NCBI GenBank assembly: GCA_965248925.1
Contig: CBDFLE010000006.1
Coordinates: forward strand, 3,136,001-3,200,000
DNA: 64,000 bases
Direction of reading: 5' to 3'
Origin: Candidatus Multivoradales bacterium
GTDB lineage: Bacteria; Acidobacteriota; Thermoanaerobaculia; Multivoradales; J023
Each line of letters opens with the position of its first letter. Position 1 is the first letter of the stretch. The position numbers were made by a program, and so were the translations under genes. Below the pieces are notes generated by a model that saw nothing but the letters and a program-made list of their open reading frames with translations, did no database searches and was not told where the DNA came from. Shown one piece after another: positions 10,709 through 64,000 of this stretch.

Positions 10709-11569
10709 TCACCTGCGGCGGATCACCGCGGTGCGGGGAATGCCGCCGTAGTCGCGGACAGTCCGGCGGAGTTCGAGCCGTGGGCGCTCGGCGATGGCGT
10801 TGGCGAGCCATTCGTGTTGGTCGTAGCCGATTTCGAGCAGCAGGTGAACACCGGAGCGCAGCTCGCGGGCGCTGTCGAGCAGGTGGGTGATCAGCGCCCG
10901 ACCGGCGTCGTCGGCGTAGAGGGCCAGGTGGGGTTCGAAGTGGTGAACTTCGTGCGACAAGCTAGGGCCCTCGGCCGGATTAACGTAGGGCGGGTTGCTG
11001 ACCAACAGGTCAACTCGTTGCAGGTCGAGACCCTCGGCCAGGTCGCCTTGCAGGCAGGTCAGGCGCTGGTCGCGGAGGTGGCGGCGGGCGTTGGCGGCGG
11101 CGACGGCTAGGGCATCCAAGGAGAAGTCAGTGGCCAGTACTCGGGCCGCGGGTAGCTCGGCGGCCAAGGTGACGGCGATGCAGCCGGAGCCGGTGCCGAT
11201 GTCGACTATGGTTGGCCGTTCGCCGAGTTCGAAAGCGAGGGCGGCTTCGATCAGATGCTCGGTCTCGGGGCGGGGGATCAACACTCGGCGGTCGACGGCG
11301 AAGGAGCGGCCCCAGAACTCACGCTCGCCGGTCAGATAGGCCACCGGCTCGCCGGTCAGACGGCGGTCGATCAGCGCTAGGAACCGCTCCTGGGTAGCCC
11401 CCGGCAGCGGCTCTTTCGAACGGGCCAGCAGCTGGGCCTCGCTGTAGCCTGTGAGGTGGCCGAGCAAGAGGCTGGCTTCGCGGGCCGAGGGGGCAAACGC
11501 CGCCGCCGTCAAGCGGCGGCGAGCCGCGGCCAGCACTTCGCCGATCAGCGCTGTCGCGGGGCCGGCCAA
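10709..11569 (-). CDS. prmC: Release factor glutamine methyltransferase
   Basis: 'RRLTGEPVAYLTGEREFWG', 'VLIPRPETEHL', 'DIGTGSGCIA' and 'SNPPY'. Confidence 0.95.
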   Translation of the reverse strand: MAGPATALIGEVLAAARRRLTAAAFAPSAREASLLLGHLTGYSEAQLLARSKEPLPGATQERFLALIDRRLTGEPVAYLTGEREFWGRSFAVDRRVLIPRPETEHLIEAALAFELGERPTIVDIGTGSGCIAVTLAAELPAARVLATDFSLDALAVAAANARRHLRDQRLTCLQGDLAEGLDLQRVDLLVSNPPYVNPAEGPSLSHEVHHFEPHLALYADDAGRALITHLLDSARELRSGVHLLLEIGYDQHEWLANAIAERPRLELRRTVRDYGGIPRTAVIRRR

Positions 11570-11571
11570 GT

Positions 11572-11745
11572 TCAGTGGACCTCCACCAGCGACTCGCGGC
11601 CGGCCACGGGCTGGCCCTCGCCGTCGCTGATCGCGTCGCCGAAGGTGATTTCAGCCGCTCGGGCGCCAGCCGCTGACAGGGCGCTGAAGGTGCGCGCCAC
11701 GATCATCACAAGTGCGAGCAAGCGGTGGCAGTAGGAAAATCGCAT
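11572..11745 (-). pseudogene. 57-aa ORF (MRFSYCHRLLALVMIV...GDAISDGEGQPVAGRESLVEVH), probably the truncated start of a secreted protein
   Basis: GGAGG lies 7 nt before the ATG. A signal-like N-terminus is followed by a 'G.I.D.EG.PVAG' pattern resembling the start of a carboxypeptidase-regulatory-like domain, then a stop. Absent from the ORF track. Confidence 0.4.
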
Positions 11746-11916
11746 GTCGGATCCTCCGCAGGGAGGGCAAGACGGAGGACTCTACCCTCTCATACCGAGC
11801 AGAAATCAAGCCAGGTTCAATGGCTCACGCTGATGGCCGAAGATCGGCGGTATGATGCGCCCCCGTCGGCCACTACACCGATTGCCCACTGGGCTGGCGG
11901 TGCCCGGAGGTCATCG

Positions 11917-12888
11917 ATGGCTAGCGATCAGAACCACCCTCAGAGTGGCGCCCAAAACGGTGTTGCGCGCTCGTTGAGCTGGCGCCAGGTGGCGGCGCTG
12001 GGGGCGGTGTATGTGATTTGGGGCTCGACCTATTTGGCAATCCGTTTTGCCATCGAAACTCTGCCCGGTTTCAGCATGAGCGGCCTGCGTTTCTTACTCG
12101 CCGGTGGAGTGCTCTACCTGTGGGCAAGGCTGCGTGGTGCCGCGCCGCCGCGCTGGGTGGAGTGGCGCTCGGGACTGGTGATCGGCGCTTTTCTGCTGCT
12201 CGGCGGCAATGGTGGGGTGGTTTGGGCCGAGCACCGGTTGCAGTCTGGGATGGCCGCCTTGATCGTCGCCAGCGAGCCGCTTTGGGTGGTGTTACTGCTC
12301 TGCGTTTGGCCCCGCTCTGAGCGACCGCGGCCGGCCGTCCTATTCGCCATGTTGCTGGGTTTTGTGGGTGTGGTGCTGCTGCTCTCGCCCGCTGTCGATG
12401 GGTCGGTAGGGACGGCGATGGCGCTCCACCTGCCGTCGGCGTTGATGGTGATGCTGGCGGCGGTTTCCTGGGCCATCGGCTCGCTCTATGCACGGCGCGC
12501 GGCGCAGCCGAAATCACCAGTTTTGGCGACCGCCATGCAAATGTTGAGTGGCGGGTTTCTGCTGAGCTTGGCGGGGGTGGTCGCCGGAGAATGGCAGAGC
12601 TTTGAGCCGCAGCAGACTTCGTTGCTGTCGGTGATGTCGTTTCTCTACTTGGTGGTTTTCGGCGCCTTGCTGGCGTTTAGTTGCTACAGCTGGTTGGTGC
12701 GGACCACCGAGCCCACCCTGGTGGCGACCTATGCCTATGTCAATCCGATGGTGGCGGTTTTTCTCGGCTGGCTGTTGGCGGGCGAAGCGGTAGGCTGGCG
12801 GACCTTGCCAGCTGCAGGACTGATCATCGGCTCGGTGGTGTTGGTCGGTTGGTTGAGCCGGTCCAAGCGACGATCCGCGAGCCCCTAA
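11917..12888 (+). CDS. EamA/DMT family transporter (YedA-like)
   Basis: 'VYVIWGSTYLAIRFAIETLP' and 'TYAYVNPMVAVFLGW', about 10 TM helices. ATG 11917 follows GGAGG. Confidence 0.9.
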   Translation: MASDQNHPQSGAQNGVARSLSWRQVAALGAVYVIWGSTYLAIRFAIETLPGFSMSGLRFLLAGGVLYLWARLRGAAPPRWVEWRSGLVIGAFLLLGGNGGVVWAEHRLQSGMAALIVASEPLWVVLLLCVWPRSERPRPAVLFAMLLGFVGVVLLLSPAVDGSVGTAMALHLPSALMVMLAAVSWAIGSLYARRAAQPKSPVLATAMQMLSGGFLLSLAGVVAGEWQSFEPQQTSLLSVMSFLYLVVFGALLAFSCYSWLVRTTEPTLVATYAYVNPMVAVFLGWLLAGEAVGWRTLPAAGLIIGSVVLVGWLSRSKRRSASP

Positions 12889-12912
12889 GACAAGCTATGG
12901 AGAGGAGGATGA

Positions 12913-13524
12913 ATGGCCGAAGACCTCAAGTCCCCCGCCACGCCCCAGGTTGTTCGTTGTGACTGGGCTGGCGATGATCCGCTCTACATCGAGTATCACG
13001 ATCGCGAATGGGGGGTGCCGCAGCACGACGATCGAAAGCTCTTCGAAATGCTCCTGCTGGAAGGGGCCCAGGCCGGTTTGGCTTGGATCACAATCCTGAG
13101 AAAGCGCGAGGGCTATCGGCGGGCACTCGAGGGTTTCGACGCCGAGCGCATCGCCCGCTATGGCGACGCCGAAACTGCTCGTTTGCTGGCTGATGAGGGC
13201 ATTGTTCGCAATCGGTTGAAGGTTAAGAGCGCAATCCGCAATGCCCGCGCTTTCTTGGCGGTGCAGGAGGAGTTTGGCAGTTTCGACAGCTATCTCTGGC
13301 GCTTTGTCGACGGTCAGCCGATCCAGAACAGTTGGCGGCGAATGGCCGAGGTGCCGGCCTCCACCGAGCACAGCGATGCTCTGTCGAAAGATCTGAAGAC
13401 CCGTGATTTCAACTTTGTCGGCTCGACTATCTGCTACGCCTTGATGCAGTCGGTGGGAATGGTCAACGATCATATTTCCGACTGCTTTCGCTACCGCGAG
13501 TGCACTGTCTTGTCGTCAGTGTGA
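12913..13524 (+). CDS. tag: DNA-3-methyladenine glycosylase I
   Basis: 'RCDWA...YHDREWG', 'LEGAQAGLAW', 'IVRNRLK' and 'GMVNDH...C'. Confidence 0.95.
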   Translation: MAEDLKSPATPQVVRCDWAGDDPLYIEYHDREWGVPQHDDRKLFEMLLLEGAQAGLAWITILRKREGYRRALEGFDAERIARYGDAETARLLADEGIVRNRLKVKSAIRNARAFLAVQEEFGSFDSYLWRFVDGQPIQNSWRRMAEVPASTEHSDALSKDLKTRDFNFVGSTICYALMQSVGMVNDHISDCFRYRECTVLSSV

Positions 13525-13574
13525 CTCCAAGGCTGAATACCGGTCGAATTCTGTAGGAGCGAAGCAAAGGGGCG

Positions 13575-15356
13575 ATGGTGATACAGACTTGTCTACCCGG
13601 AGTGGCACGCGGTGTGGTGCTGCGCGTCCTACTTTGCTGGTTGCTGGCCTGTGGCTTGGCCGCCGCCGAGTTGGCCGCGGAGACGGTGGCGGTGAAAGTC
13701 GAGGTAACCGGTGTCGAGGGTGAACGCCGGGCCAATGTGCTGGCCCTGTCGAGTTTGGCGCGGCAAGCTGGCCAAGGTGAACTCGAAATCCGCCAAGTCG
13801 AACGCCTTTTCGCGCGCGCTGAGCGGGAGATTGCTGGCGCCTTGGAGCCCTTCGGTCTCTATCGCCCAGAAGTTGATAGTGAGCTGGATCGCGACGCGGC
13901 ACCTTGGCGCGCGATCTACAACATCGATCCTGGTCCGCAGATTGTGGTCGGCGAGTTGCAGTTCGAAATCCTCGGCGCGGCGCGGCAGGACGATCTCTTC
14001 ACCGCTCTCGAAGTGTTTTTCCCCTTGGCCGGGGGCACTGCTTTCAGCCATCCAGAGTGGCAGGCTACCAAGGCGGCGCTGCTGGATCTGGGTGCCGAAC
14101 GGGGCTATTTCGATGCTCGCTTGACCGTGCATCAGGTACGCATCGATCTCGACCGCTACCGCGCCGATCTCGAACTGCGCTACGACAGCGGTCCGCGCTA
14201 TCGCTATGGCGAGGTGCGGATAGAGCAAGACTTCCTCCAACCAGAGTTGATCGAGGCTTATGTTTCGCTCACTCGCGGGGCGCCGGTAGACTTGCTGGAA
14301 CTGCTGCGTTTGCAAGCGCGACTCTCGGGCACCCCCTATTTCCAAGGGGTCGAGGTGCGACCGCTGATCGAGGAAAGGGCCGCGGGTGAAGTGCCGATTG
14401 AGCTTCGCTTGGTGCCACGCCGCCGACTGGGCTATGAAGCGGGCCTGGGCTACGGCACCGATACCGGTCCGCGGGTCACCTTCGCGCTCGACCTGCGGCG
14501 GCTGAATCGCCGCGGCCACCATGCCTTGGTGAGTGGCAAGATCGCGGCAGCCGAGCGCCGGGTCACCGCCAGCTATGTGCTGCCGCGGGTGCGATCTGTT
14601 TCTAGCAACTTGCGTCTGAGCGCTGGCTGGCGCGAATTGGTGCCGAGTTCCAGTGATACCCAGACCTCCTTTCTCACCCTCTCCCGCGACCGTCGCCGCG
14701 GTCGTTGGGGCGAGGTGGTGTCGCTGTCCTATCAGCGTCACCAGTTCACCATCGGCAACGACGACGATGTGACCCGCCTGTTGATTCCGGGGCTGGCTTA
14801 CTCGCGGGTCGAAGCTGATGATCGACGTATCGCGACTCGTGGCTACCGGCTATCCCTGGAACTCGACGGTGCGCTGGCCGGAGGGCCTTCTGACGCTGGC
14901 TTTCTCCGCCTTCGTCTGGGTGGCAAAGTAGTGCGCAAGTTGGCTGAGCGCTGGCGCGTGATCGGGAGGGGTGAAGTGGGTTATTTGGCCGCGGATGATT
15001 TCCGCCTGCTACCGCCGACTGTGCGCTTCTTCACCGGTGGCGACGGCAGCGTGCGTGGTTTTGGCTTCCAAGAAATCGGTGCCCGCGACGAGCTTTCAGA
15101 TCAGCTGCTCGGTGGCAAGGCTCTGACCGTGCTGTCGGCCGAACTCGAATGGCGCTTCTTCGAGACCTGGGGCGCGGCGGTGTTTCTCGATGCTGGCAAT
15201 GCCAGCGATAGTTTTGGCGACCGGCTAGAACGCGGTGCGGGTCTCGGGGCTCGTTGGTATCTGCCGATCGGCTTGTTGCGGATCGACGCTGCTTGGGCAC
15301 TGAGCCGCGACAGTCGGCCGCTGCGCTTGCACCTCGGTGTGGGGTTCGACCTGTGA
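13575..15356 (+). CDS. tamA: Omp85-family translocation and assembly module protein TamA
   Basis: Signal peptide, POTRA-like region, 'GYGTDTGPR', 'RFFTGGDGSVRGF' and a C-terminal barrel strand. Directly upstream of TamB. Confidence 0.85.
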   Translation: MVIQTCLPGVARGVVLRVLLCWLLACGLAAAELAAETVAVKVEVTGVEGERRANVLALSSLARQAGQGELEIRQVERLFARAEREIAGALEPFGLYRPEVDSELDRDAAPWRAIYNIDPGPQIVVGELQFEILGAARQDDLFTALEVFFPLAGGTAFSHPEWQATKAALLDLGAERGYFDARLTVHQVRIDLDRYRADLELRYDSGPRYRYGEVRIEQDFLQPELIEAYVSLTRGAPVDLLELLRLQARLSGTPYFQGVEVRPLIEERAAGEVPIELRLVPRRRLGYEAGLGYGTDTGPRVTFALDLRRLNRRGHHALVSGKIAAAERRVTASYVLPRVRSVSSNLRLSAGWRELVPSSSDTQTSFLTLSRDRRRGRWGEVVSLSYQRHQFTIGNDDDVTRLLIPGLAYSRVEADDRRIATRGYRLSLELDGALAGGPSDAGFLRLRLGGKVVRKLAERWRVIGRGEVGYLAADDFRLLPPTVRFFTGGDGSVRGFGFQEIGARDELSDQLLGGKALTVLSAELEWRFFETWGAAVFLDAGNASDSFGDRLERGAGLGARWYLPIGLLRIDAAWALSRDSRPLRLHLGVGFDL

Positions 15357-18300
15357 GCCGGTGGCGAAGTGGAAAGTGGGTGCGGGTGCTGGCGGTCTTG
15401 TTGTTGCTCTTGGGTCTGGCACTTTTTTGGCTCAGTGCTACTGCGAGTGGCGCCGGTGTGTTGTTGGGATGGGTTGGGCGCCTGGCTCCCGGCGAGCTGC
15501 ATTTCGCTTCCCAGACCGGTGCCCTGGCTGATCTAAAAATCTCCGGCTTGCGCTACCACGATGCCGCTGGCCTCAGCGTGAGGTGCGCTGAGTTCGAGCT
15601 GTCCTGGCATCCCTGGGCCCTGCTGCGCGGCCGTTTGCAGATCGAGCGTCTGCTCGCCCGCCAGGTCGAGGTGCGTCTACCGCCGAGCACGGGTGAGCCG
15701 TCATCCCCGCCGCCGAGCTGGTCCCTACCGATGGCCGTAGAGGTGGACTCGGCCCTGATTCAGCAGCTTGAAGTGGTTCCGGCGGAGGGTGAGTCGAGTG
15801 TTGTAGATGAACTGGAGTTCGCTCTGGCGGGCCGTGACGAGCAGTTGCAGGTCGACACTTTGCGGTTGCTGGCGGCGGGAGTCGAGGCCGAGCTACAGGG
15901 GGAGCTGCACGCCCAACAGGTCGACTTCGAGGTGGCTTGGACCGTCTTTGTCGAGGGGGGTCCCAAGCTCAGTGGCGGCGGCCGAATCGAGGGTGACCCG
16001 GTCCGGCTGAAGATCACTCAGCAGCTCACCTCACAGCCGGGTTTGCGGCTCGCGGCGCAAATCGAAGATGCCTTCGACACGGCAGCCTTGGTCGGAGCGC
16101 TGCGCTTCGATCACTTCGACCCGTCTTTGACCGACCCTGCTTGGCCGGCGGCTGTAGTGACCGGCGAGTTACGTTTGGCCGGCAGCGTCTCCGCCCCGCG
16201 GCTGGAATTGGCACTCGACGGCAATCTGGCGCAGGCCGAGCCTTGGCGTCTTTCCGGCGGGGTGGCGTTGGCGGCGGACGGTTGGCGGTTGAGTCAGATC
16301 GAAATGCAGCAGCTCGGCGGCGCTGGCTGGCTCCGGGCCGACGGGTCGCTACGGCCGGCCGGCTCAACGATGGCGATCGACTTGGCCTTGGATTGGCGGC
16401 AGCTGTCGACCTCGCTGGCCGAGGGTCGCCAGCTGCTCAGTCCTCACGGCAGTGGCCGCCTCGCTGGAACCCTGGCGGACTACCGGCTCGAGGTGCTGGC
16501 CGATCTGCGCCTGGCGGAAGTCGAACTGGCGGATTGGCGGCTGGCGGCGACGGGTGATGCCGACCGTCTCTTGATTGAGGAGTTGGGAGGTGGCATCGGC
16601 GGCGGCGAGCTGCGAGTTCAAGGTGAAGTGGCTTGGCAGCCGCGGCTCAGCTGGCGCCTGGGGATGGTGGCCACGGCCCTCGATACCGAAGTGCTTGGGC
16701 CGCAATGGCCAGGGGCGGCCGATCTGCGGGCAGAAGTTGCGGGCTATGTCGATCCAACCGGCGGCCCGGCGCGGGGCACCCTCGATCTTGAGCACCTCGG
16801 TGGCAATTTGCGCGGTGAGAGCCTTGGTGGTGCTGGACGGCTGTTATTCGATGGTGCCGCCCTGGTCGCCGAAGAGCTGAGTTTGTCCTGGGGCGCGGCG
16901 CGGCTGGAACTTAGCGGTCAACTCAGCGCGGGCCTGGACCTTGAGTTCGAGCTAGAGGCGCCAGATCTAGCACCTCTTTGGCCCGACACGGCCGGCGCAT
17001 TGCAGGCCAGCGGCCGGCTTTCGGGCGCCTGGCCGCGCCCTCAGGTCGAGATCGAAGCACGCGCTTCCGGTCTGCGTTGGAGTGACTATTCGCTGGCCCG
17101 ATTCGACCTGTCCGCCAGCCTCCAACCAGGAGCCGAAGGGGTGACAGAGGGCCGTCTACTGCTCCACGATTTGCGGCTCCGCGAGCTACAGCTCGAGGAG
17201 GCCGACATGACCCTCAGCGGTAGCTATGCCGCCCACCAGCTCGCGGGCTTGCTGCGGCTGCCGCTGGGCGATCTGCGTTGGCGTGCCGTGGGTGGTTTTG
17301 AGACTCACTGGCAGGGGCGCTTCGAAGCGCTCGATGCTGAGTTTGGCGACTATGGTAGCTGGCGACTCGCGGCACCCGCCGAGTTGGTGCTGGCGGCCGA
17401 ACAGAGTTCGTTGGCGCCGGCTTGCTGGCACTCCTCAGCCGGCAAAGTCTGTCTGCGGGGTAGCTCGGTGGCGACGGGGTGGCAAGCTTCGTTGCAACTC
17501 GAGGCGCTGGATCTCAGATTGCTTTCGAACCACTTGCCGGCCGGGTTGAGAGTCAAGGGCCATTTTGACGGTGAGGCCGAAGCCAGTTCAGCCGCGGCGG
17601 GCGGTTGGTTGGGAAGCGCGCGGCTAGTGCCGTCACCAGGAGGCTTCGAGTATCGCCGCCTAGGCCAAGAGACGGTGCGTTTCGACTACGCCGGAGGCGA
17701 GCTGCGGCTCGGGCTAGAGGACGGCTGGCTGCGGGCGACCGCCGATCTTTCTTTTGCCGGCGACGACTACCTGCGGGGCCGCTTCGCCATGCCTTGGGAG
17801 CAGGCCGACGCCGAGATCGAGGGTGATCTCGAAGCCCGCTTGTCGACCCTTGAGCTGGTGCCCGTGTTGATTCCGCAGCTGGGCAATGCGGCGGGCCGCT
17901 TGCGGATCGAATCGCAGCTGGCTGGTACTTGGTCGGCGCCGCGGGTAGCTGGTTTGCTGACTCTGGAAGAGGGGCGCTTCGCTCTGCCCGACTTCGGAAT
18001 TGAGCCCCGCGATGTCCATTTACGCCTGCGCAGTGAGACCGGTGATAGGTGGTTAATCTCGGGTGCCGGTACAAGCGGCGGCGGACAGCTGAATGTCGCC
18101 GGCGAGGCGGCGGCCGATTTCTCCAGCTTCAGCCTGCGGCTGACCGGCACCGACTTTCTGCTCAGTGACACCGCCGAGTTGCGGGCCGAGGTCTCGCCCC
18201 GTCTTGACCTTCAGTTCAGCGCTAGGGAGCTGACCTTCTCTGGCCAGGTCGAGGTGCCCCGAGCCCATCTCGATCTCGGTCGACAGCAGAGCGTGGTCGA

Positions 18301-58779: not shown

Positions 58780-61587
58780 ATGGAAGGGACCACCCTGGGT
58801 CCGTATCGCCTCGAGAAGCGGCTAGGTGCTGGTGGTATGGGGGAGGTCTTCAAGGCGCATGACGACCGTCTGGGTCGATCAGTGGCGATCAAGAGGATCC
58901 TGCCCACTAAGCAGCAAAGTGCCGGTTTTCGTCAGCGTTTGCTAAGGGAAGCACGGGCTATTGCCCAGCTTAATCACCCGGCGATCGTTCAGATCTACGA
59001 CATCTTCCAAGACGGTGATAGCGACTGCATCGTCATGGAGTTTGTCGAGGGACAGCGCCTCGATAAGCTGATCCGCGAGAGCCGGCTCGACTTGGAAACG
59101 GTGTTGCGTTGCGGCAAAGAAATTGCGAGTGGGCTTGCTGAAGCCCATTCCAAGGGAATCCTGCATCGTGATCTGAAGACTGAGAATGTCCTGCTGAGCG
59201 CCGCCGGTGACGCCAAGCTGCTGGATTTCGGCTTGGCTCGCCCCCTCCGACCGACAGAGTTCGACGCCTCGCTCACCGCCCACGACCAGATGGTCGGCAC
59301 CAGCCGAACCTTGTCTCCCGAGTACGCCAGCGGCGACGAGATCGACCATCGCTCGGACCTTTTCCAGTTGGGAGTGCTGCTCTACGAAGCTTGTACCGGC
59401 AGCTCACCGTTCAAGGCCCAGAACACCCTCGCCACCCTCAAGCGAGTGATTCTGCACACCCAGGCACCGGTGGCGATGTTGCGCCCCGAGGTGCCGCCAG
59501 AGTTGTCGGAACTGATCGACAGGTTGTTGGAGAAGGACCCTGAGGATAGGCCGCAGAGCGCAGCCGAAGTGGCCGAGGAGCTGGCTCTGATGTTCGGCTC
59601 CACCACTTCGTCGGAATCGATGGTGCGCAGCAACCAGTATCGGCGGCCCTCGCGACTGACAGCGGTGCTTGCTGTGCGTCGGGGAACGTTTTGGCTCGCT
59701 GCTCTGGCCATGCTGCTGCTGGCGCTGGGGATAGGGTTTTACTTCGTTGGCGGGCGAGCCGGTCGCGAGCAACAAGGACCGGGCTTACTGCAGGCCAAGG
59801 ATTCGGTGGTGCTGGCGCATCTCGACAACCGTACCGGCGACGCGGATCTCGATCACTCCGTCGGCACCGCGTTGCGGGTGGGGCTCAATCAGTCTCGTTT
59901 TGCTTATGTGCTGCCGCCGGAGCGGGTAGCCGACGCTCTGGATCGGATGGAGCGGCAGCCGGGCTCGAGAATCGATCGCCAACTCGGCATCGAAATTTGC
60001 CAGCGGGAGGCCTCGAAGGCTCTGGTGAGCGGCAGTGTGGTCAAGGTGGGTGACAACTACAAGATCAGTGTTGAGCTGATCGACCCCGGCAATCAGCGTA
60101 GCGTGTTTACCTTCTCGGCCCCTGCCGAAGGGCGAGACGGGATCCTCAACGCGGTCGAGCTGGCGGCACGGGCCCTGCGCGCCAACCTAGGCGAGTCCTT
60201 GGCGACGATCAAAGAGAGCGCCCTGCCCTTGGAGAAGGTAACCACCCCCCATTTGCAGGCCCTTGAAGCCTACTCGCTGGCCGCCAGACATCATCTGCAG
60301 GGTGATCCCGAGGCCGCTATCCTGCTGCTCGAAGAAGCGCTTGAGATCGACCCCGGCTTTGCCATGGCGCACGCTCGCCTGGGTACTATTTATCGCAATT
60401 TGCAGCGCGGAGGGGAACTCGCCCCGAGGCATTTCGAGCGGGCCTTGGAGCTGCATGACCGACTGGCTCCCCTGGAGCGGCTCTATGTCGAAGGTTGGGT
60501 GGCCTCAACCCAGGGGGAACCGGGTGAGATGGTGCGGATCTGGTCGCTGATGAGTTCTCTTTACCCGCAACACGACTCCGGGCACTACAACCTGGGGATG
60601 GTCTACTGGCAGTTCCAGAATCAGTACCAGATGGCCGCAGAAGCCTTGCGCGAAGCCAGCGAGCTGGTCAATAACAGTCGCCGCTACCAGGCGATGATGA
60701 TGTACGGCTACTGTCAGCTGGCACTCGGTGAGCGTGAGGGTGCTCTGGTCAGCTTCGAAGAGGCCCGGCAGCAGCAGACGGACCAACCTGTGGCGGCTCT
60801 TGCCTTGGTAGATGCCTACCTTGCCGAGCGTCGTTACGACCCAGCGCGGCAGCTGGCGGAGAGGGTGGTTCGAGAGACCGCCGATCAGTGGCAGGTTCAG
60901 GCCAAGCTGCGTCTAGCTTTGTTGGAGATGGACCGGGGCCGTTTTCCAGCTGCCCTTGATCGGTTGACCGAGGTGATTGCCCAAGCCGAAGCGACGGGGC
61001 TCGCGCGGCCGGCCCTGGTCGCTCGCCTGGCTCGTATCGCCGTGCTCGAGATCGAAGGCGATCGGGATAGCTTCGCGCGCGAATTGGACATCTCGATCTC
61101 CTCCGCTCGCCAGCTGTTGGGCACCGAGAGCGCCGTGCTGAGCTCCTCTCCAACTACTTTGCTGGTGATGCTCGGCAAGCTTGGCTTACGCCATGGATCG
61201 GCTGAACAAGCACGGCAGATTTTCGGCTGGCTAGCGCCGCTGGCCGAAGAGACCGGATATGCGCTGCGCCGGGCCTACGTCAAGATCCTGGAAGGCGAGA
61301 TTCTAGCTTTTGAAGGACAGGTGCAGCTGGCTGACGAGCGTTTGCGCGAGGCGATCACTATCGCCGAGCCGATTCAGGCGCACGAAAGTCTGGCCCGTCT
61401 ATGGATGGCGGCGGGCCAAGAAGAGACCGCGGCGATCCACTTTGCTTGGCTGCGCCAGCACCGCTCACGCGCCTTTGTCGAGTGTGTCGGCTATTGCTTT
61501 GGTCGTGAACTCAATGTCTTGGCCTTGCAGCAGGCCGAGGAATGGCGGCCGCTGACAGCGAATGAAGCGGGATCGGACACCGACTAA
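58780..61587 (+). CDS. Hanks-type Ser/Thr kinase with one TM helix, a TolB_N-like domain and TPRs (peptide-system receptor-like)
   Basis: GAGGMG, VAIK, HRDLKTEN, DFG and SPE motifs; TM 'FWLAALAMLLLALGIGFYFV'; then 'VVLAHLDNRTGD..LD' and TPRs. Confidence 0.9.
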   Translation: MEGTTLGPYRLEKRLGAGGMGEVFKAHDDRLGRSVAIKRILPTKQQSAGFRQRLLREARAIAQLNHPAIVQIYDIFQDGDSDCIVMEFVEGQRLDKLIRESRLDLETVLRCGKEIASGLAEAHSKGILHRDLKTENVLLSAAGDAKLLDFGLARPLRPTEFDASLTAHDQMVGTSRTLSPEYASGDEIDHRSDLFQLGVLLYEACTGSSPFKAQNTLATLKRVILHTQAPVAMLRPEVPPELSELIDRLLEKDPEDRPQSAAEVAEELALMFGSTTSSESMVRSNQYRRPSRLTAVLAVRRGTFWLAALAMLLLALGIGFYFVGGRAGREQQGPGLLQAKDSVVLAHLDNRTGDADLDHSVGTALRVGLNQSRFAYVLPPERVADALDRMERQPGSRIDRQLGIEICQREASKALVSGSVVKVGDNYKISVELIDPGNQRSVFTFSAPAEGRDGILNAVELAARALRANLGESLATIKESALPLEKVTTPHLQALEAYSLAARHHLQGDPEAAILLLEEALEIDPGFAMAHARLGTIYRNLQRGGELAPRHFERALELHDRLAPLERLYVEGWVASTQGEPGEMVRIWSLMSSLYPQHDSGHYNLGMVYWQFQNQYQMAAEALREASELVNNSRRYQAMMMYGYCQLALGEREGALVSFEEARQQQTDQPVAALALVDAYLAERRYDPARQLAERVVRETADQWQVQAKLRLALLEMDRGRFPAALDRLTEVIAQAEATGLARPALVARLARIAVLEIEGDRDSFARELDISISSARQLLGTESAVLSSSPTTLLVMLGKLGLRHGSAEQARQIFGWLAPLAEETGYALRRAYVKILEGEILAFEGQVQLADERLREAITIAEPIQAHESLARLWMAAGQEETAAIHFAWLRQHRSRAFVECVGYCFGRELNVLALQQAEEWRPLTANEAGSDTD

Positions 61588-62822
61588 CCACCAGAACCCG
61601 TGGGCTGGCCGCGCAAGGCCAGCGTCGGCCGAGAGTCCTCAGCCGCTGCCGGCACTCCACAGCCACAAACCGCGATGGAACCTTCCATGGCAGGCTCCAG
61701 GCCGAGTTCTTGCTCGACGTTGGCGCCGTTGATGGCGGCGCTAAAGAAAGCTCCCAAGCCCAGCTCGGCGGCTACCAGGTAGAAGGTCTGGCTGAGGTGG
61801 GCGGCGTCCATCAGGACCACCCCATAGGTCTTGGCACTGTCGCCATATTTCCAGAAATTGCGTCGAAAGCGGGCGGTCAGAAACACCAGCACCTGGGCCC
61901 CAGAGGGAAAAGACTGGCCCGCGGTTAGTTGGTCGGCTAGTTGTTCTACCCGTTCTGGCGCCAAGGCTCGTACCAAGCTCAGTCCGTGCTGGCCAGTGTT
62001 GTAGTGGTAGAAGCCGGCAGCCAAGTCTTCGACGTCGCGGACCAGGGGATAGGCTTCTATGGGATGCAGCGCGCCGCCTGAAGGACTGGTCTTGTGTAGC
62101 ACCTCGAAATCGGCCGACAGCCTCGAGCTACCGTGGCAGCCGAAGACCTGGAACAGCAAGGTAGATAGATCTTGCAGCCGTAAAGAGCGCCGAGGATTGA
62201 AGCGGCGAGTGGTTCTGCGCTGAGCTAGCAGGCGGTAGAACGGGCGATCAGTCTCGGCTGTCGGTAGGGGTTCAGGAGATGCCGCGTTGGTCGGCTGGTG
62301 AAACGCTGTTGGCGCTACCCCGCGCTGGGCGGCGAATTCGGTGAATAGCCGCTCGTTGTTGCGGACCAGCTGGTTTTGCTCGTCCTCATCATTCGGCACT
62401 CCCAAGTCTTGATCTCGCCAGCGGTTCATGAAGTGGTAGAGCGCCGCCTGGGCTGGCCAGCCGGCCTCCCCGATGCGCTGATCGCGCTCGCGAAGAGCCG
62501 TTGGGCCGGGCTCCTCCTGGTCGCTGAGTAGCAGCCCAATATCGATCAACTTGGCGATCAGCTGTGGCTTGGCAGCGGTTCGTTCGAGCAGCAGGTCGAC
62601 CGCAAGCCACTGGTCGCGGGGTACGCTCAGCAGTAGCTCGACTTCGCTGGTAGTGATGCAGTGGCGGGTCGAAGTAAGCAGCGAAAGAGCTTGCAACTCA
62701 GTCTGAGAGCGCAGCTCGACCGCGCCGCGGAGCAGAGCCCCGAGATCGACGACCTGCTGGTCCGCGAGTTCGAAGAACAGGTTGCGAGGCCGCTTGACGC
62801 GCAGTGTCGATTCTTCTGTCAT
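61584..62822 (-). CDS. SagB-related FMN-dependent putative peptide maturation dehydrogenase
   Basis: Nitroreductase-fold motifs 'LLAQRRTTRRF', 'KTSPSGGALHPIEAYPLV', 'ARFRRNFWKY' and 'MDAAHLSQTFYL', plus an N-terminal extension of about 170 aa. Confidence 0.88.
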   Translation of the reverse strand: MTEESTLRVKRPRNLFFELADQQVVDLGALLRGAVELRSQTELQALSLLTSTRHCITTSEVELLLSVPRDQWLAVDLLLERTAAKPQLIAKLIDIGLLLSDQEEPGPTALRERDQRIGEAGWPAQAALYHFMNRWRDQDLGVPNDEDEQNQLVRNNERLFTEFAAQRGVAPTAFHQPTNAASPEPLPTAETDRPFYRLLAQRRTTRRFNPRRSLRLQDLSTLLFQVFGCHGSSRLSADFEVLHKTSPSGGALHPIEAYPLVRDVEDLAAGFYHYNTGQHGLSLVRALAPERVEQLADQLTAGQSFPSGAQVLVFLTARFRRNFWKYGDSAKTYGVVLMDAAHLSQTFYLVAAELGLGAFFSAAINGANVEQELGLEPAMEGSIAVCGCGVPAAAEDSRPTLALRGQPTGSGG

Positions 62823-62933
62823 GGGTCAATTTGGCCCCTGGACCGACCCGCGGGATAGCTGTATCGAGAGCTTCGAGGTCGGTATTCGACCCGTGTTTGG
62901 CCTTCTCGCAGATGCACGATGCCCAGATACAAC

Positions 62934-62979
62934 AAACCCCCCAGACTCGTACTCAACCGTAGCTGGAGTCGGGGGGTTT
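62934..62979 (-). terminator. Stem-loop or terminator just downstream of the precursor peptide gene
   Basis: AAACCCCCC(A)GACTC ... GAGTCGGGGGGTTT inverted repeat, followed by a T-rich stretch on the minus strand. Confidence 0.6.
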
Positions 62980-62992
62980 TCGGGACTGACGG

Positions 62993-63292
62993 TCAGTGTA
63001 CGAGCGAATCGTCCGTCAGGAAAGGAACCCAGGGCAAGATTCGACGCCGACTGGAAGCCGACAAATCCTTGACCCCAGCCGCCAGTTCGGCGCTGCCCGG
63101 CAAGGTGACACTCTGCGGAATGTCCGCCGGATCGACGATCAGTCCGAGCTGCGCGAAGGCAGCTGAAGGATCCTCTCGCAGCTGAGTTCTAAAAGTTGGG
63201 TTGTGGTGGACTTGCCGCAGTAGCTCGAGCTGCCGCTGTGGCAAAGGGTCGCTGGATAGCGAGCTTCTTAAGTGGGAATTCGCCAGACGCAC
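62993..63292 (-). CDS. NHLP-related RiPP precursor peptide (about 99 aa)
   Basis: GTG 63292 follows AAAGGGGG. Leader 'LELLRQVHHNPTFRTQLREDPSAAFAQLGL.V....IP..VTLP' is typical of nitrile-hydratase-like leader peptides. Lies directly upstream of the SagB-like gene. Confidence 0.75.
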   Translation of the reverse strand: MRLANSHLRSSLSSDPLPQRQLELLRQVHHNPTFRTQLREDPSAAFAQLGLIVDPADIPQSVTLPGSAELAAGVKDLSASSRRRILPWVPFLTDDSLVH

Positions 63293-63534: not shown

Positions 63535-63744
63535 TCAGCAGGACTTGATTTCTGCCCAGGAGGCACAGACTTTGCGGATTTCACCAGGGTCGGCGCGGTC
63601 TAGAGCATCGGCAGTGAAGGCGCGGATTTCAGCGTCTTCGATGCCGGATTGGCGCATCGCCTGCCGAATCGCGCTGACCCAAGCGAATGGGTTGTGGCTG
63701 CTCAAACAAATTTCAATGTCGGGGTATCGCGGGTTCATCAGCAT
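63535..63744 (-). CDS. Small hypothetical protein
   Basis: 'NPFAWVSAIRQAMRQSGIEDAEIRAFTADAL...CASW' is a compact helical pattern that recalls small phage-associated proteins. Function unknown. Confidence 0.55.
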   Translation of the reverse strand: MLMNPRYPDIEICLSSHNPFAWVSAIRQAMRQSGIEDAEIRAFTADALDRADPGEIRKVCASWAEIKSC

Positions 63745-64000
63745 TCTTGGCGCCTCGTCTAACAAGTTAGACGCTTGAAGGCTGGAATTCGTTCCGTATG
63801 CCTTGGTGATTTTTCAGATTCCGTGGTCTTCCAGGGCCGCCTGAGAAAAAAAGGTGCAAGACTGATTCCAGGCGCTGGGTAGTGTCAGGCAGCAACAGCG
63901 GCGCGGAGAGCGTATGCCGGGGTTGACGATCCATGTCCTCCGGATGGGGCGGTTGAGAGGGCGGCTGGGTTATCCTAGATTCCCCGGTGCCAAAGGTGGG

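Follow-up and report, generated by a model that had tools for sequence, protein, structure and literature searches.

The locus described here raises the question of what a peptide gene, a flavin enzyme gene and a membrane kinase gene do together in a member of the Acidobacteriota. The first-pass annotation had proposed a modified-peptide signalling circuit rather than an antibiotic cluster. We refer to the whole stretch of 64,000 nucleotides that was analysed (Candidatus Multivoradales bacterium, contig CBDFLE010000006.1, positions 3,136,001 to 3,200,000) as the window. The positions proposed for the receptor gene, the dehydrogenase gene and the end of the peptide ORF were borne out, as was the overlap of the two convergent stop codons (Table 1). 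The outer edge placed at 63292 was too short, because a conserved small ORF lies further out on the minus strand. The cassette is conserved in soil bacteria and looks like a peptide-signalling circuit. It is very probably the kinase-output form of the NCBIfam cassette TIGR04509/TIGR04510/TIGR04511, in which a precursor and a SagB-type FMN dehydrogenase are combined with a convergent single-pass receptor. Xanthomonas and Stenotrophomonas carry these three families as a triad. Two Lysobacteraceae loci were found among those examined here. The window cassette is a new output variant of a parent cassette that is known from database models alone, and no mention of the three models was found in the literature searched. 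The family matches of the three window proteins are, by sequence comparison, not due to chance, because the E values were 1.4e-94 for the receptor (TIGR04510), 1.7e-93 for the dehydrogenase (TIGR04511) and 2.6e-15 for the precursor (precursor HMM).

Table 1. Features of the cassette, with positions in the window.
Feature	Position	Strand	Basis
Receptor gene: Hanks Ser/Thr kinase, single membrane helix, extracytoplasmic alpha/beta and TPR-like sensor (~600 aa)	58780..61587	+	ORF, 935 aa
Kinase domain, PknB-like, residues 9-261	58804..59562	+	PF00069/Pkinase, 180 bits
Single predicted membrane helix, ~residues 305-327, FWLAALAMLLLALGIGFYFVGG	59692..59760	+	Sequence; one long helix 295-329 in AF2 model
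Sensor alpha/beta domain, residues 341-469; most conserved motifs AFRxGLEQSR and ICQRE	59800..60186	+	AF2 secondary structure
TPR-like helical repeat region, residues 474-927, ~26 helices	60199..61560	+	Pfam and AF2 model
Overlapping stop codons of convergent receptor and dehydrogenase genes	61584..61587	.	CTAA: TAA 61585-61587 (+), TAG 61584-61586 (-)
SagB-type FMN dehydrogenase, 412 aa, TIGR04511 member	61584..62822	-	TIGR04511, 313.7 bits (cut-off 240)
Dehydrogenase N-terminal domain, ~residues 8-95, three strands then three helices	62538..62801	-	Model secondary structure
GC-rich hairpin 3' of precursor stop, 15-nt arm AAAACCCCCCGACTC pairing with GAGTCTGGGGGGTTT, then U-rich GTTGTAT	62934..62980	-	Fold of spacer
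Precursor peptide, 99 aa from GTG start, NHLP-related leader, C-terminal ILPWVPFLTDDSLVH tail	62993..63292	-	ORF; TIGR04509 and custom HMM
Small conserved ORF upstream of precursor, same strand	63535..63744	-	69 aa from ATG; 76 aa from TTG at 63765

Judged by fold and motifs, the N-terminus of the receptor is a Hanks-type (eukaryotic-like) Ser/Thr protein kinase. The catalytic residues K38, H129-R130-D131 (HRD) and D149-F150-G151 (DFG) were present in the translation and the alignment, and PknB structures matched the domain with TM-scores of 0.83–0.90 on the target (mean pLDDT of the AF2 receptor model, 85.5). The kinase (PF00069) stands where a class III nucleotidyl cyclase domain was looked for, and no PF00211 match was listed. 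The profile search gave the result predicted by the first-pass annotation, in that the receptor matched only the C-terminal part of the cyclase model TIGR04510 (model positions 214–813 on residues 305–919). The score of 318.2 bits was below the cut-off of 400 because the cyclase domain, which takes up model positions 1–213, is replaced by the Hanks kinase. The membrane helix and the sensor of the family are present, as full-length alignment to true members (P0010, P0011, P0015 and L041) indicated, and in the alignment the position of the helix is taken up by hydrophobic residues in cyclase-type relatives too. Furthermore, the gene adjoins a TIGR04511 dehydrogenase gene in convergent orientation, as expected of TIGR04510 members. 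The quoted sensor motifs were found in the translation, and A364, R366, Q371 and R409 were invariant columns of the alpha/beta domain in the alignment. The label "TolB_N-like" had to be dropped: no TolB family was among the best 25 of 26 Pfam families, no Pfam family matched the alpha/beta domain, and the model gave this region simply as an alpha/beta domain.

By score, alignment span and tree, the region after the membrane helix resembles TIGR04510 proteins more closely than it does the generic kinase-TPR proteins of Acidobacteriota. TIGR04510 gave 318 bits for the window protein and 192–233 bits for four generic kinases. Approximately 580 of the 606 sensor residues aligned with true TIGR04510 proteins, whereas the generic kinases covered about 290–400, from sensor residue 8 to about residue 300–400 only. 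The generic Ser/Thr kinase-TM-TPR proteins correspond to the window receptor in the kinase, in the single membrane helix and over the initial 290–400 sensor residues (~31–38% identity), but their second TPR half did not align with the window sensor, and this half separates the dehydrogenase-linked clade from them. A branch with an SH-aLRT value of 99 united the window protein with 7 cyclases and 14 other kinases and left 47 generic kinases outside, and FastTree (149 rows) placed the window sensor with true TIGR04510 proteins with a support of 100, again separate from the generic clade. Among the best 150 representatives, the full-length sensor was fused to 53 kinases, 55 cyclases, 19 ToxR-like wHTH domains and 5 TIR domains (outputs of 10 checked with Pfam). 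These output types were interspersed across the sensor tree, which indicates that the sensor is an input module for interchangeable outputs.

Such a module can sense other things, because its generic relatives are common in the phylum without peptide genes: matches at E ≤ 1e-60 occurred in 51 of 401 genomes and the dehydrogenase in one. The receptor might therefore perceive another envelope or environmental cue and time the making or use of a peptide that is itself an effector (an antibiotic or a membrane-active product), the kinase or cyclase being a cluster-linked regulator. We consider this explanation rather unlikely. The very hydrophobic precursor tails would suit a membrane-active product, and the cassette has no linked exporter. 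However, the sensors linked to the dehydrogenase branch off as a separate clade whose second TPR half is distinct, which suggests a cassette-specific ligand. Moreover, none of the outputs (phosphorylation, cyclic nucleotide, TIR) binds DNA and the cassette contains no transcription factor, so that cluster-local control would need unlinked parts. Against an antibiotic-type product, none of the immunity genes, transporters or proteases that usually accompany antibiotic RiPPs was found. Within the 401 genomes, a sensor match above 262 bits was obtained in the window genome only.

We surveyed gene neighbourhoods at 80 dehydrogenase loci and 78 generic kinase loci. A tail-to-tail junction of the kinase-sensor gene with the dehydrogenase gene was found in 7 other genomes (7/80 dehydrogenase loci, all Acidobacteriota), a count biased towards linkage because these seven loci were found through the dehydrogenase; one more locus has a kinase 3.3 kb upstream. 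The cyclase is arranged likewise in 4 of the 80 loci (4 genomes) and on 1 metagenome contig, and none of the 78 generic kinase loci contained the dehydrogenase. The arrangement extends over Acidobacteriota, Pseudomonadota and Myxococcota, and the junctions in relatives are tight, from a 39-nt overlap to a 36-nt gap. Among 8 kinase-type relatives found by the sensor alone (P0002–P0009), 4 were on contigs equal in length to contigs with a dehydrogenase hit, and 2 of these 4 were confirmed as loci. The dehydrogenases paired with a membrane sensor lay on one side of a branch with a local support of 98. Chance adjacency of three functionally unlinked genes would agree with the kinase being a separate transcription unit on the opposite strand, but it is contradicted by the synteny counts, namely the recurrence with kinases and cyclases in three phyla and the absence from generic kinase loci, and is extremely improbable.

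The 80 loci were not uniform. In 51 of them, a kinase or cyclase ORF was no more than 500 nt away from the peptide/dehydrogenase pair, in at least four architectures, and in 9 loci with full flanks neither a kinase nor a cyclase was present within 3.5 kb. Most Actinomycetota loci had as partner a cyclase-AAA_16-TPR protein without the TIGR04510-type sensor. These partners bring to mind a stress or anti-phage (abortive-infection-like) module, in which the peptide/dehydrogenase pair would serve defence together with a kinase, cyclase, TIR or STAND partner. The domains concerned are typical of defence systems (Ser/Thr kinase, STAND-like cyclase-AAA_16-TPR protein, and TIR as a sensor fusion). PADLOC models PD-T4-6 and mad6 matched the kinase domain and PycC matched the actinobacterial cyclase, and the cassette is sporadic, since the window genome alone, among the 401 sampled from the phylum, gave a TIGR04511 match over the cut-off. 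Nevertheless, the PADLOC matches were confined to the generic kinase and cyclase domains, and no model of PADLOC-DB 2.0 matched the dehydrogenase, the precursor, the small ORF or a 1360-aa actinobacterial partner. An extracytoplasmic sensor would also be odd for phage detection, and the neighbours are of the housekeeping type, with no defence island. A role in defence is improbable on this evidence.

In regards to the precursor, we used an HMM built in a leave-one-out manner without the window sequence. Its sole match among the 1246 window ORFs was the precursor ORF, and of the 71 non-seed dehydrogenase loci it gave a precursor hit in 43. With 20.0 bits for TIGR04509 (E 5.4e-4), the window precursor falls short of the 34-bit cut-off; precursors of cyclase-type loci passed with 50.7 and 42.9 bits, and that of the kinase-type locus L033 scored 27.2. 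As the alignment indicates, the leader is homologous to the TIGR04509 NHLP-related leader, with R35 (FR), P42 and L64-P65 (LP) invariant. The GTG start follows 7 nt after a purine (SD-like) run, AAAGGGGGG. The C-terminal tail is aromatic and holds a W-x-G/P-F-hydrophobic region, and the cores show no conserved pattern of Cys, Ser or Thr.

The precursor gene with which the dehydrogenase gene pairs has the same orientation and is located 170 nt upstream of it. The TIGR04511 match spans model positions 1–371 of 380 (313.4 bits in the genome search), and the nitroreductase-fold FMN domain of the SagB type was detected with TIGR03605 (120.6 bits, cut-off 78.4) and PF00881 (65.8 bits). The closest solved folds to the AF2 model (pLDDT 88.8) were ThcOx, BmdC and McbC. 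These azoline oxidases, together with CyaGox, were the best matches by sequence and fold (8pz5 and 5lq4; E 3.7e-23 by sequence, E 6e-17 by fold), and Foldseek aligned the enzyme with ThcOx over its full length (412 columns). ThcOx has RRE-like N-domains. In the model, the N-terminal domain of the window enzyme is probably leader-binding (RRE-like). A Lys-Tyr pair in the conserved RNFWKY stretch resembles the catalytic motif of azoline oxidases. In contrast to the loci of azoline oxidases, no YcaO or cyclodehydratase lies near the dehydrogenase, and the usual azoline substrate is missing because the cores have no conserved Cys/Ser/Thr pattern. An azoline substrate is therefore unlikely for this enzyme.

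The residues of the core also bear on the possibility that the receptor takes part in maturation, which its database name, "peptide modification system cyclase", would imply, either as a scaffold for the precursor or with its kinase phosphorylating Ser and Thr of the core. Ser and Thr each occur in the window core, several in all, peptide binding is common among TPR domains, and the kinase domain weakly matches lanthipeptide synthetase kinase domains (94 and 54 bits). These scores are far under the cut-offs of 575–650 bits, however, and the core tails of relatives such as L052 contain one Ser or none. In addition, the predicted topology puts the TPR module across the membrane from the dehydrogenase and the ribosome. 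The same sensor carries a cyclase, wHTH or TIR in place of the kinase, so that no common peptide chemistry fits. We regard a maturation role as quite improbable.

The best reading that we infer from these results is a circuit of ligand, maturase and receptor, to which we give a probability slightly short of even. The leader would be bound by the dehydrogenase and the C-terminal W-x-G/P-F-hydrophobic region oxidised; a two-electron dehydrogenation of the peptide would be expected. No cyclodehydratase is present for azolines. The matured peptide would leave the cytoplasm and bind the outer TPR module of the receptor, whereupon the kinase would autophosphorylate and then phosphorylate its targets. 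The signalling reading is strengthened by the four kinds of output domain that the sensor bears and weakened by the lack of an exporter. In the neighbourhood of the cassette, no exporter, leader protease, transcription factor, immunity gene, YcaO or cyclodehydratase was found, and Peptidase_C39 had no match at E ≤ 1e-5 in the genome (96.9% complete). Because the cluster contains no transcription factor, the output would be global signalling and not cluster-local control. If the actinobacterial cyclase-AAA_16-TPR partners are cytoplasmic, an outside ligand would not be a general rule. The loci with neither kinase nor cyclase nearby, the precursor score below the TIGR04509 cut-off and the want of a conserved Cys, Ser or Thr pattern in the core were counted against signalling.

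A broader proposal, which we make tentatively, is that the cassette represents a hitherto unrecognised family of pheromone systems that Gram-negative soil bacteria build on modified peptides, with a STAND-type cyclase variant in Actinobacteria. Such systems would combine a flavin-oxidised peptide with an aromatic C-terminus, a dedicated TPR receptor and at least four outputs. If this is true, evolution has plugged one receptor input module into Hanks kinase, nucleotidyl cyclase, ToxR-like DNA-binding and TIR outputs.

The window cassette shares with the NCBIfam cassette the dehydrogenase family, a homologous leader, the membrane helix and the whole outer sensor. Its tail-to-tail gene order is that of the cyclase-type loci L041, L099, L107, L110 and L170. 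The precursor gene lies upstream of the dehydrogenase gene in the window, whereas the three cyclase loci from proteobacteria have it placed between the genes for the dehydrogenase and the cyclase. The TOMM kinase/cyclase fusion TIGR03903, which occurs with NHLP-Burk precursors, is likewise a large signalling protein whose gene is linked to those of an NHLP-type precursor and the enzymes that modify it; Haft et al. 2010 (PMC2887384) mention "a large, Ser/Thr kinase" in TOMM clusters. The actinobacterial partners of TIGR04511-type dehydrogenases matched the cyclase-ATPase part of TIGR03903 with 206–217 bits. The window receptor is not a TIGR03903 protein, as it scored 103.2 bits against a cut-off of 705.75 and matched the kinase part only (model positions 3–245 of 1267). 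TOMM clusters also possess a cyclodehydratase/docking protein, which the window cassette does not.

In ComQ/ComX/ComP and in AgrB/AgrD/AgrC, a precursor is encoded together with an enzyme dedicated to its modification and with a receptor kinase in the membrane. The window cassette would follow the logic of these autoinducer-type circuits by analogy, with parts that are unrelated to theirs by homology. The ComX cassette is not known to encode a dedicated exporter, and none is encoded in the window cassette. The receptors of ComQXP and Agr are polytopic histidine kinases with a response regulator, whereas the window receptor is a single-pass protein with a TPR ectodomain and a Hanks kinase (cyclase, wHTH or TIR in relatives). 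ComQXP and Agr belong to Firmicutes, in contrast to the Acidobacteriota, Pseudomonadota and Myxococcota that carry the window-type cassette.

The hairpin noted between the precursor and dehydrogenase genes was present, but it is not a conserved feature, since z-scores below −2 were obtained in 2 of the 6 spacers tested. The whole spacer in the window had a z-score of −2.3, and 3 of 200 shuffles folded equally well. Lying between the two genes, the hairpin may serve as an attenuator. The genes around the cassette encode a patatin, a desaturase, a two-component pair and CpeT. The small ORF had no family match in Pfam or PADLOC and the atlas search gave no lead; homologues with 46–55% identity occupied the same position in the loci L033, L070, L052 and L105.

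The dehydrogenase of the cassette belonged to TIGR04511 (peptide maturation dehydrogenase), scoring 313.7 bits (cut-off 240). The large protein contained a Pkinase domain at residues 9-261 (180 bits), and its residues 305-919 aligned with positions 214-813 of the 814 positions of TIGR04510 (peptide modification cyclase; E = 1.4e-94, 318 bits, cut-off 400). Thus, all of TIGR04510 was matched except for the cyclase domain, as the first-pass annotation had predicted when it expected a match to the C-terminal part of the cyclase model only. The precursor matched TIGR04509 (NHLP-related peptide) weakly (20.0 bits, E = 5.4e-4, cut-off 34); an HMM of nine precursors from related loci, built with the window left out, detected this ORF alone among 1246 window ORFs (E = 2.6e-15). 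Among 401 genomes of the phylum, a sample that includes one genome (G024) with only a sub-cut-off SagB-like match, the window gene was the best match to TIGR04510 (318.9 bits; runner-up 261.4 bits) and TIGR04511 exceeded its cut-off in the window genome only. The closest relatives of all three proteins were from Acidobacteriota MAGs. The window genome contained no second strong copy of the sensor. Approximately 215 kb away in the same genome, a 1092-aa ORF (G000:C6:3414602-3415168) matched TIGR04510 in the cyclase part only (positions 2-191, 199 bits); it is a cyclase whose C-terminal region is of another kind.

Features of the cassette at the window locus and at loci of relatives (L numbers); the junction figures leave out L037 and L092
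Feature	Locus	Position	Strand	Remark
Receptor kinase gene	window	58780..61587	+	935 aa, ORF listing
Dehydrogenase gene	window	61584..62822	-	412 aa, ORF listing
Precursor gene	window	62993-63292	-	99 aa, GTG start; longest ORF form from 63427
GC-rich hairpin, then U-rich stretch	window	62934-62980	-	3' of precursor stop
Small conserved ORF	window	63535-63744	-	69 aa, MLMNPRYPDI...; upstream of precursor, beyond the span of the first-pass annotation
Convergent Solirubrobacterales ORF	L044, L061, L062, L063, L069, L076, L083, L088, L098, L108	about 11160-15440	-	
Receptor/dehydrogenase junction	window			4-nt overlap
Receptor/dehydrogenase junction	L033			36-nt gap
Receptor/dehydrogenase junction	L052			4-nt gap
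Receptor/dehydrogenase junction	L054			35-nt gap
Receptor/dehydrogenase junction	L055			9-nt gap
Receptor/dehydrogenase junction	L070			6-nt gap
Receptor/dehydrogenase junction	L041			39-nt overlap

The convergent receptor and dehydrogenase genes share the tetranucleotide CTAA at 61584-61587, which bears out the overlap of stop codons read earlier from the sequence. The shorter form of the precursor gene was adopted because AAAGGGGGG lies 7 nt before its GTG and because the Met residues of its relatives lie at a similar distance from the conserved leader in the precursor alignment (A3). The hairpin was rejected as a generally conserved attenuator, with z < -2 in just two of six spacers. Homologues of the small ORF (46-55% identity) occupied the equivalent position in three kinase-type loci (L033, L070, and L052) and in L105, on a contig that breaks off past the dehydrogenase; the remaining kinase-type loci did not contain it. 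The small ORF matched no Pfam or PADLOC family and retrieved unnamed clusters only (scores 0.89-0.90) in a protein atlas search. The outer neighbours, surveyed past the window end, were unrelated (patatin, a protein without family, a CpeT-like protein, a PQQ-repeat protein, a desaturase, and a two-component pair), and no exporter was found among the cassette neighbours. PCAT export in the window genome was also considered and rejected, with no Peptidase_C39 match and TIGR03796 matches that had no peptidase part.

We compared the region following the membrane helix with TIGR04510 proteins and with generic kinases, that is, acidobacterial kinase-TPR proteins outside the dehydrogenase-linked clade. 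Four generic proteins also matched TIGR04510 (192-233 bits), which indicates that the sensor module is broadly related to the generic family; true TIGR04510 proteins scored 628 (P0010), 595 (P0011), and 453 bits (P0015). In a word-index search with the sensor, query coverage was 93-96% for ten matches (33-43% identity) and 34-71% for all others; of the ten, P0002-P0009 were kinases, and P0010 and P0011 had no kinase domain. BLAST aligned the dehydrogenase-linked sensors over approximately 540-580 of 606 residues and the generic sensors over residues 8 to approximately 300-400 only. In an IQ-TREE analysis of 69 sensors, from which three partial sequences and one duplicate had been removed, a branch with an SH-aLRT of 99 separated 22 rows (the window, 14 other kinases, and 7 cyclases) from 47 generic kinases. 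Coverage, BLAST, and tree thus agree in placing the region nearer to TIGR04510 proteins than to generic kinases, a question that the first-pass annotation had raised.

The dehydrogenase family comprised 971 clusters at E ≤ 1e-10, and the best 120 of these were examined. A single dehydrogenase query of species genomes gave no relative, and a 35-sequence alignment was used instead, which confirmed 558 relatives. In the best 80 of the 558 loci, tblastn detected a TIGR04510-type sensor in 13 and none in the other 67. The sensor was joined to a kinase in 8 loci, seven from Acidobacteriota or Thermoanaerobaculia MAGs (L033, L037, L052, L054, L055, L070, and L092) and one from Kofleriaceae (L067), and to a cyclase in 4 (L041, L099, L107, and L110); L085 contained a sensor fragment only, at the contig end. 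The receptor was convergent with and abutted the dehydrogenase in 7 of the 8 kinase loci, so that the synteny anticipated for the two genes was recovered; in L067 it lay 3.3 kb upstream instead. The dehydrogenase tree followed partner type, with a 19-row set (local support 98) that held 8 of 9 dehydrogenases with kinase-TM partners and 5 of 5 with cyclase-TM partners.

Because these loci were selected through the dehydrogenase, the frequency of kinase-type receptors without a dehydrogenase is not readable from the 8 loci, and less biased evidence of linkage came from sensor-first matches, a metagenome scan, and the 401-genome tally. Four of the eight kinases found with the sensor were on contigs (189188, 5015, 6204, and 11044 nt) of the same size as dehydrogenase-bearing contigs, and the 189188- and 11044-nt contigs were confirmed as L033 and L070. 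The metagenome scan with the receptor alignment (A2) returned generic kinases at 78 of 80 loci since the kinase domain dominated the ranking. These 78 loci served as a negative control: none carried a dehydrogenase, and in 50 of them (counted by hand) the sequence continued for 2 kb or more past the aligned part. The clade members were L113, a kinase type whose contig stops 394 nt past the match, and L170, a cyclase type with a convergent dehydrogenase. Against this background, we regard it as very improbable that the genes are adjacent by chance.

When the sensor alone was searched exhaustively against 1.84 billion representatives, 1631 proteins were found at E ≤ 1e-30. The outputs of the best 150 of these, assigned with small home-made HMMs, were 55 cyclases, 53 kinases, 19 Trans_reg_C (ToxR/CadC-like wHTH), and 5 TIR domains; 17, in which less than 100 residues precede the sensor, are probably fragments, and 1 had no class. 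A Pfam check of 10 proteins bore out the wHTH and TIR classes, with 4 TIR_2, 5 Trans_reg_C, and 1 without a match. Full-length sensors were fused to TIR in P0218, P0243, P0252, and P0271 and to Trans_reg_C in P0229, P0237, P0240, P0250, and P0290. In a FastTree analysis of 149 rows, of which only the broad pattern was used as the method is prone to long-branch errors, a 143-row ingroup was separated from 6 generic kinases with a local support of 100, output types were interspersed, and dehydrogenase-linked rows occurred in three of four main subgroups. The output classes and the interspersed tree indicate that the sensor is an input module repeatedly joined to different outputs, and the conserved sensor with a swappable output proposed at first pass therefore stands. 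One source gives P0002, a kinase type without a cyclase domain, the name "putative peptide modification system cyclase"; this name is misleading and is an annotation carried over from the partial TIGR04510 match, an error that the present analysis flags for kinase-type proteins.

The AF2 model of the receptor (pLDDT 85.5) consisted of a kinase that matched PknB structures (TM-score up to 0.90), a low-confidence linker, a long helix (295-329) holding the hydrophobic stretch, an alpha/beta domain (341-469), and approximately 26 helices up to residue 927; a fold search with the full model gave kinase structures only. Since the receptor has a single membrane helix and its kinase is cytoplasmic, the sensor must be on the outer side of the cytoplasmic membrane. 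Two features of the sensor end were also observed. A Cys pair (E-C-x3-5-C) at receptor residues ~900-910 (FVECVGYC; A2 columns 1240-1260) was kept in kinase-type receptors, was absent from cyclase-type receptors, and may form a disulfide outside the membrane. At its C-terminus (61450-61587), the window receptor ended approximately 50 residues before most relatives, exactly where the dehydrogenase stop is met, and did not contain their last helix pair (G.L.E..GD...A...Y..FL..W).

The precursor was located directly upstream of the dehydrogenase in kinase-type loci and between the dehydrogenase and the cyclase in L099, L107, and L110. The 13 precursors in A3 exhibited a conserved leader (hydrophobic-L..hydrophobic-a.DD.FR..Le..P..aLa..G, then V.LPs), a variable linker, and a short aromatic tail (W-x-G/P-F-hydrophobic), such as WVGFVGQ, WIGFLGN, WAGFIGHD, WFGFIVD, WAGLF, and, in the window, WVPFLTDDSLVH. 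R35, P42, L64, and P65 were invariant and F34 was nearly so; these precursors contained no Cys and no conserved Ser/Thr. The precursor HMM matched in 52 of the 80 loci, nine of which were seeds, to give an unbiased 43 of 71, and the cores at other loci were likewise hydrophobic or aromatic.

In the dehydrogenase model (AF2, pLDDT 88.8), the nitroreductase half resembled the azoline oxidases ThcOx/CyaGox, BmdC, and McbC, and the Foldseek alignment to ThcOx spanned all 412 columns. Residues 8-95, modelled as three strands followed by three helices, are read as a putative leader-recognition domain; ThcOx presumably carries such domains. No cyclodehydratase was found among the neighbouring genes surveyed, which makes an azoline an improbable substrate, and a SagB-type enzyme in such a setting makes chemistry new to RiPPs likely. 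As a guess by analogy, the candidate reaction would be a Cα to Cβ dehydrogenation of an aromatic or hydrophobic residue, as nitroreductase-fold cyclodipeptide oxidases perform.

We tentatively suggest that the dehydrogenase would mature the precursor, that the matured peptide would reach the cell exterior, and that the TPR module would bind it and switch the kinase on; taken whole, this proposal has in our estimate slightly less than an even chance. In its favour, the conserved partner is a signal-transduction protein rather than a transporter, protease, or immunity gene, and the outputs are global signals. Such output swaps fit poorly with the large protein being a maturation scaffold or a peptide kinase, which we consider decidedly improbable. 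A defence-type module is somewhat less remote but still improbable, and PADLOC gave generic domain matches only. Against the proposal stand the lack of a detected exporter or C39 peptidase and the actinobacterial partners, which have no TIGR04510-type sensor. That the receptor responds to a different cue and controls the peptide is unlikely, though it is the foremost of the alternatives. Two complex predictions of sensor residues 330-935 (A2) with the 99-aa precursor (A3) each scored 0.02, a value that bears on binding in neither direction.

A kinase or cyclase ORF was found within 500 nt of the peptide/dehydrogenase pair in 51 of the best 80 of the 558 loci (43 cyclases and 8 kinases), within 3.5 kb in 9 further loci, and in none of the remaining 20, 11 of which had a cut flank; these nearest-partner counts rest on home-made HMMs. 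In Actinomycetota, the partner was a 1040-1116-aa cyclase-AAA_16-TPR protein directly upstream on the same strand, which matched TIGR03903 positions 269-900 (L043 and L058; 206-217 bits). In Solirubrobacterales, an ORF of approximately 1300-1400 aa convergent to the dehydrogenase matched the home-made cyclase HMM weakly (32-44 bits), and its L061 copy had no PADLOC match. A Haliangiales MAG (L035:11317-13965) had a Ser/Thr kinase with PD40 (TolB-type propeller) repeats after the dehydrogenase, not a TPR sensor.

Firmicutes provide the textbook cases of peptide pheromones that come with their own maturases and receptor kinases; to our knowledge, hardly any such systems have been described from Gram-negative phyla. 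In soil, the Acidobacteriota rank with the most abundant bacteria and also with those understood least, and the cassette offers a compact candidate of one peptide, one enzyme, and one receptor, whose input module has interchangeable outputs and behind which a large dehydrogenase family stands. Literature searches by model accessions and names gave no paper on the cyclase-type cassette, and further searches gave nothing relevant. On these searches, the kinase form is a new version of the cyclase-bearing cassette, which is known only from the three NCBIfam models. In the accessible text of PMC8939145, a SagB-like enzyme is named for graspetide loci alone. In the accessible text of Haft et al. 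2010 (PMC2887384), a large Ser/Thr kinase is recorded beside NHLP-Burk TOMM clusters, the nearest published precedent, which differs in its TIGR03903 protein and in the presence of a cyclodehydratase.

Several precursors had unusual layouts. In two Solirubrobacterales MAGs (L061:8816-9994 and L098:8776-9945), a leader-like region and a GTLGTLGTLGTFGTNR tail formed the C-terminus of a ~390-aa protein whose first 300 residues matched no Pfam family. A 245-aa ORF in the Haliangiales MAG (L035:9232-9969) had two tandem NHLP-like leaders. In two further MAGs, one from Gemmatimonadetes and one from Oceanibium (L093:8553-9515 and L106:8771-9844), the same leader was followed by approximately 20 tandem units of ~13 aa (QTYGPASYAAGAAP / QTYGPATYAAGA), giving Tyr-rich multi-core precursors.
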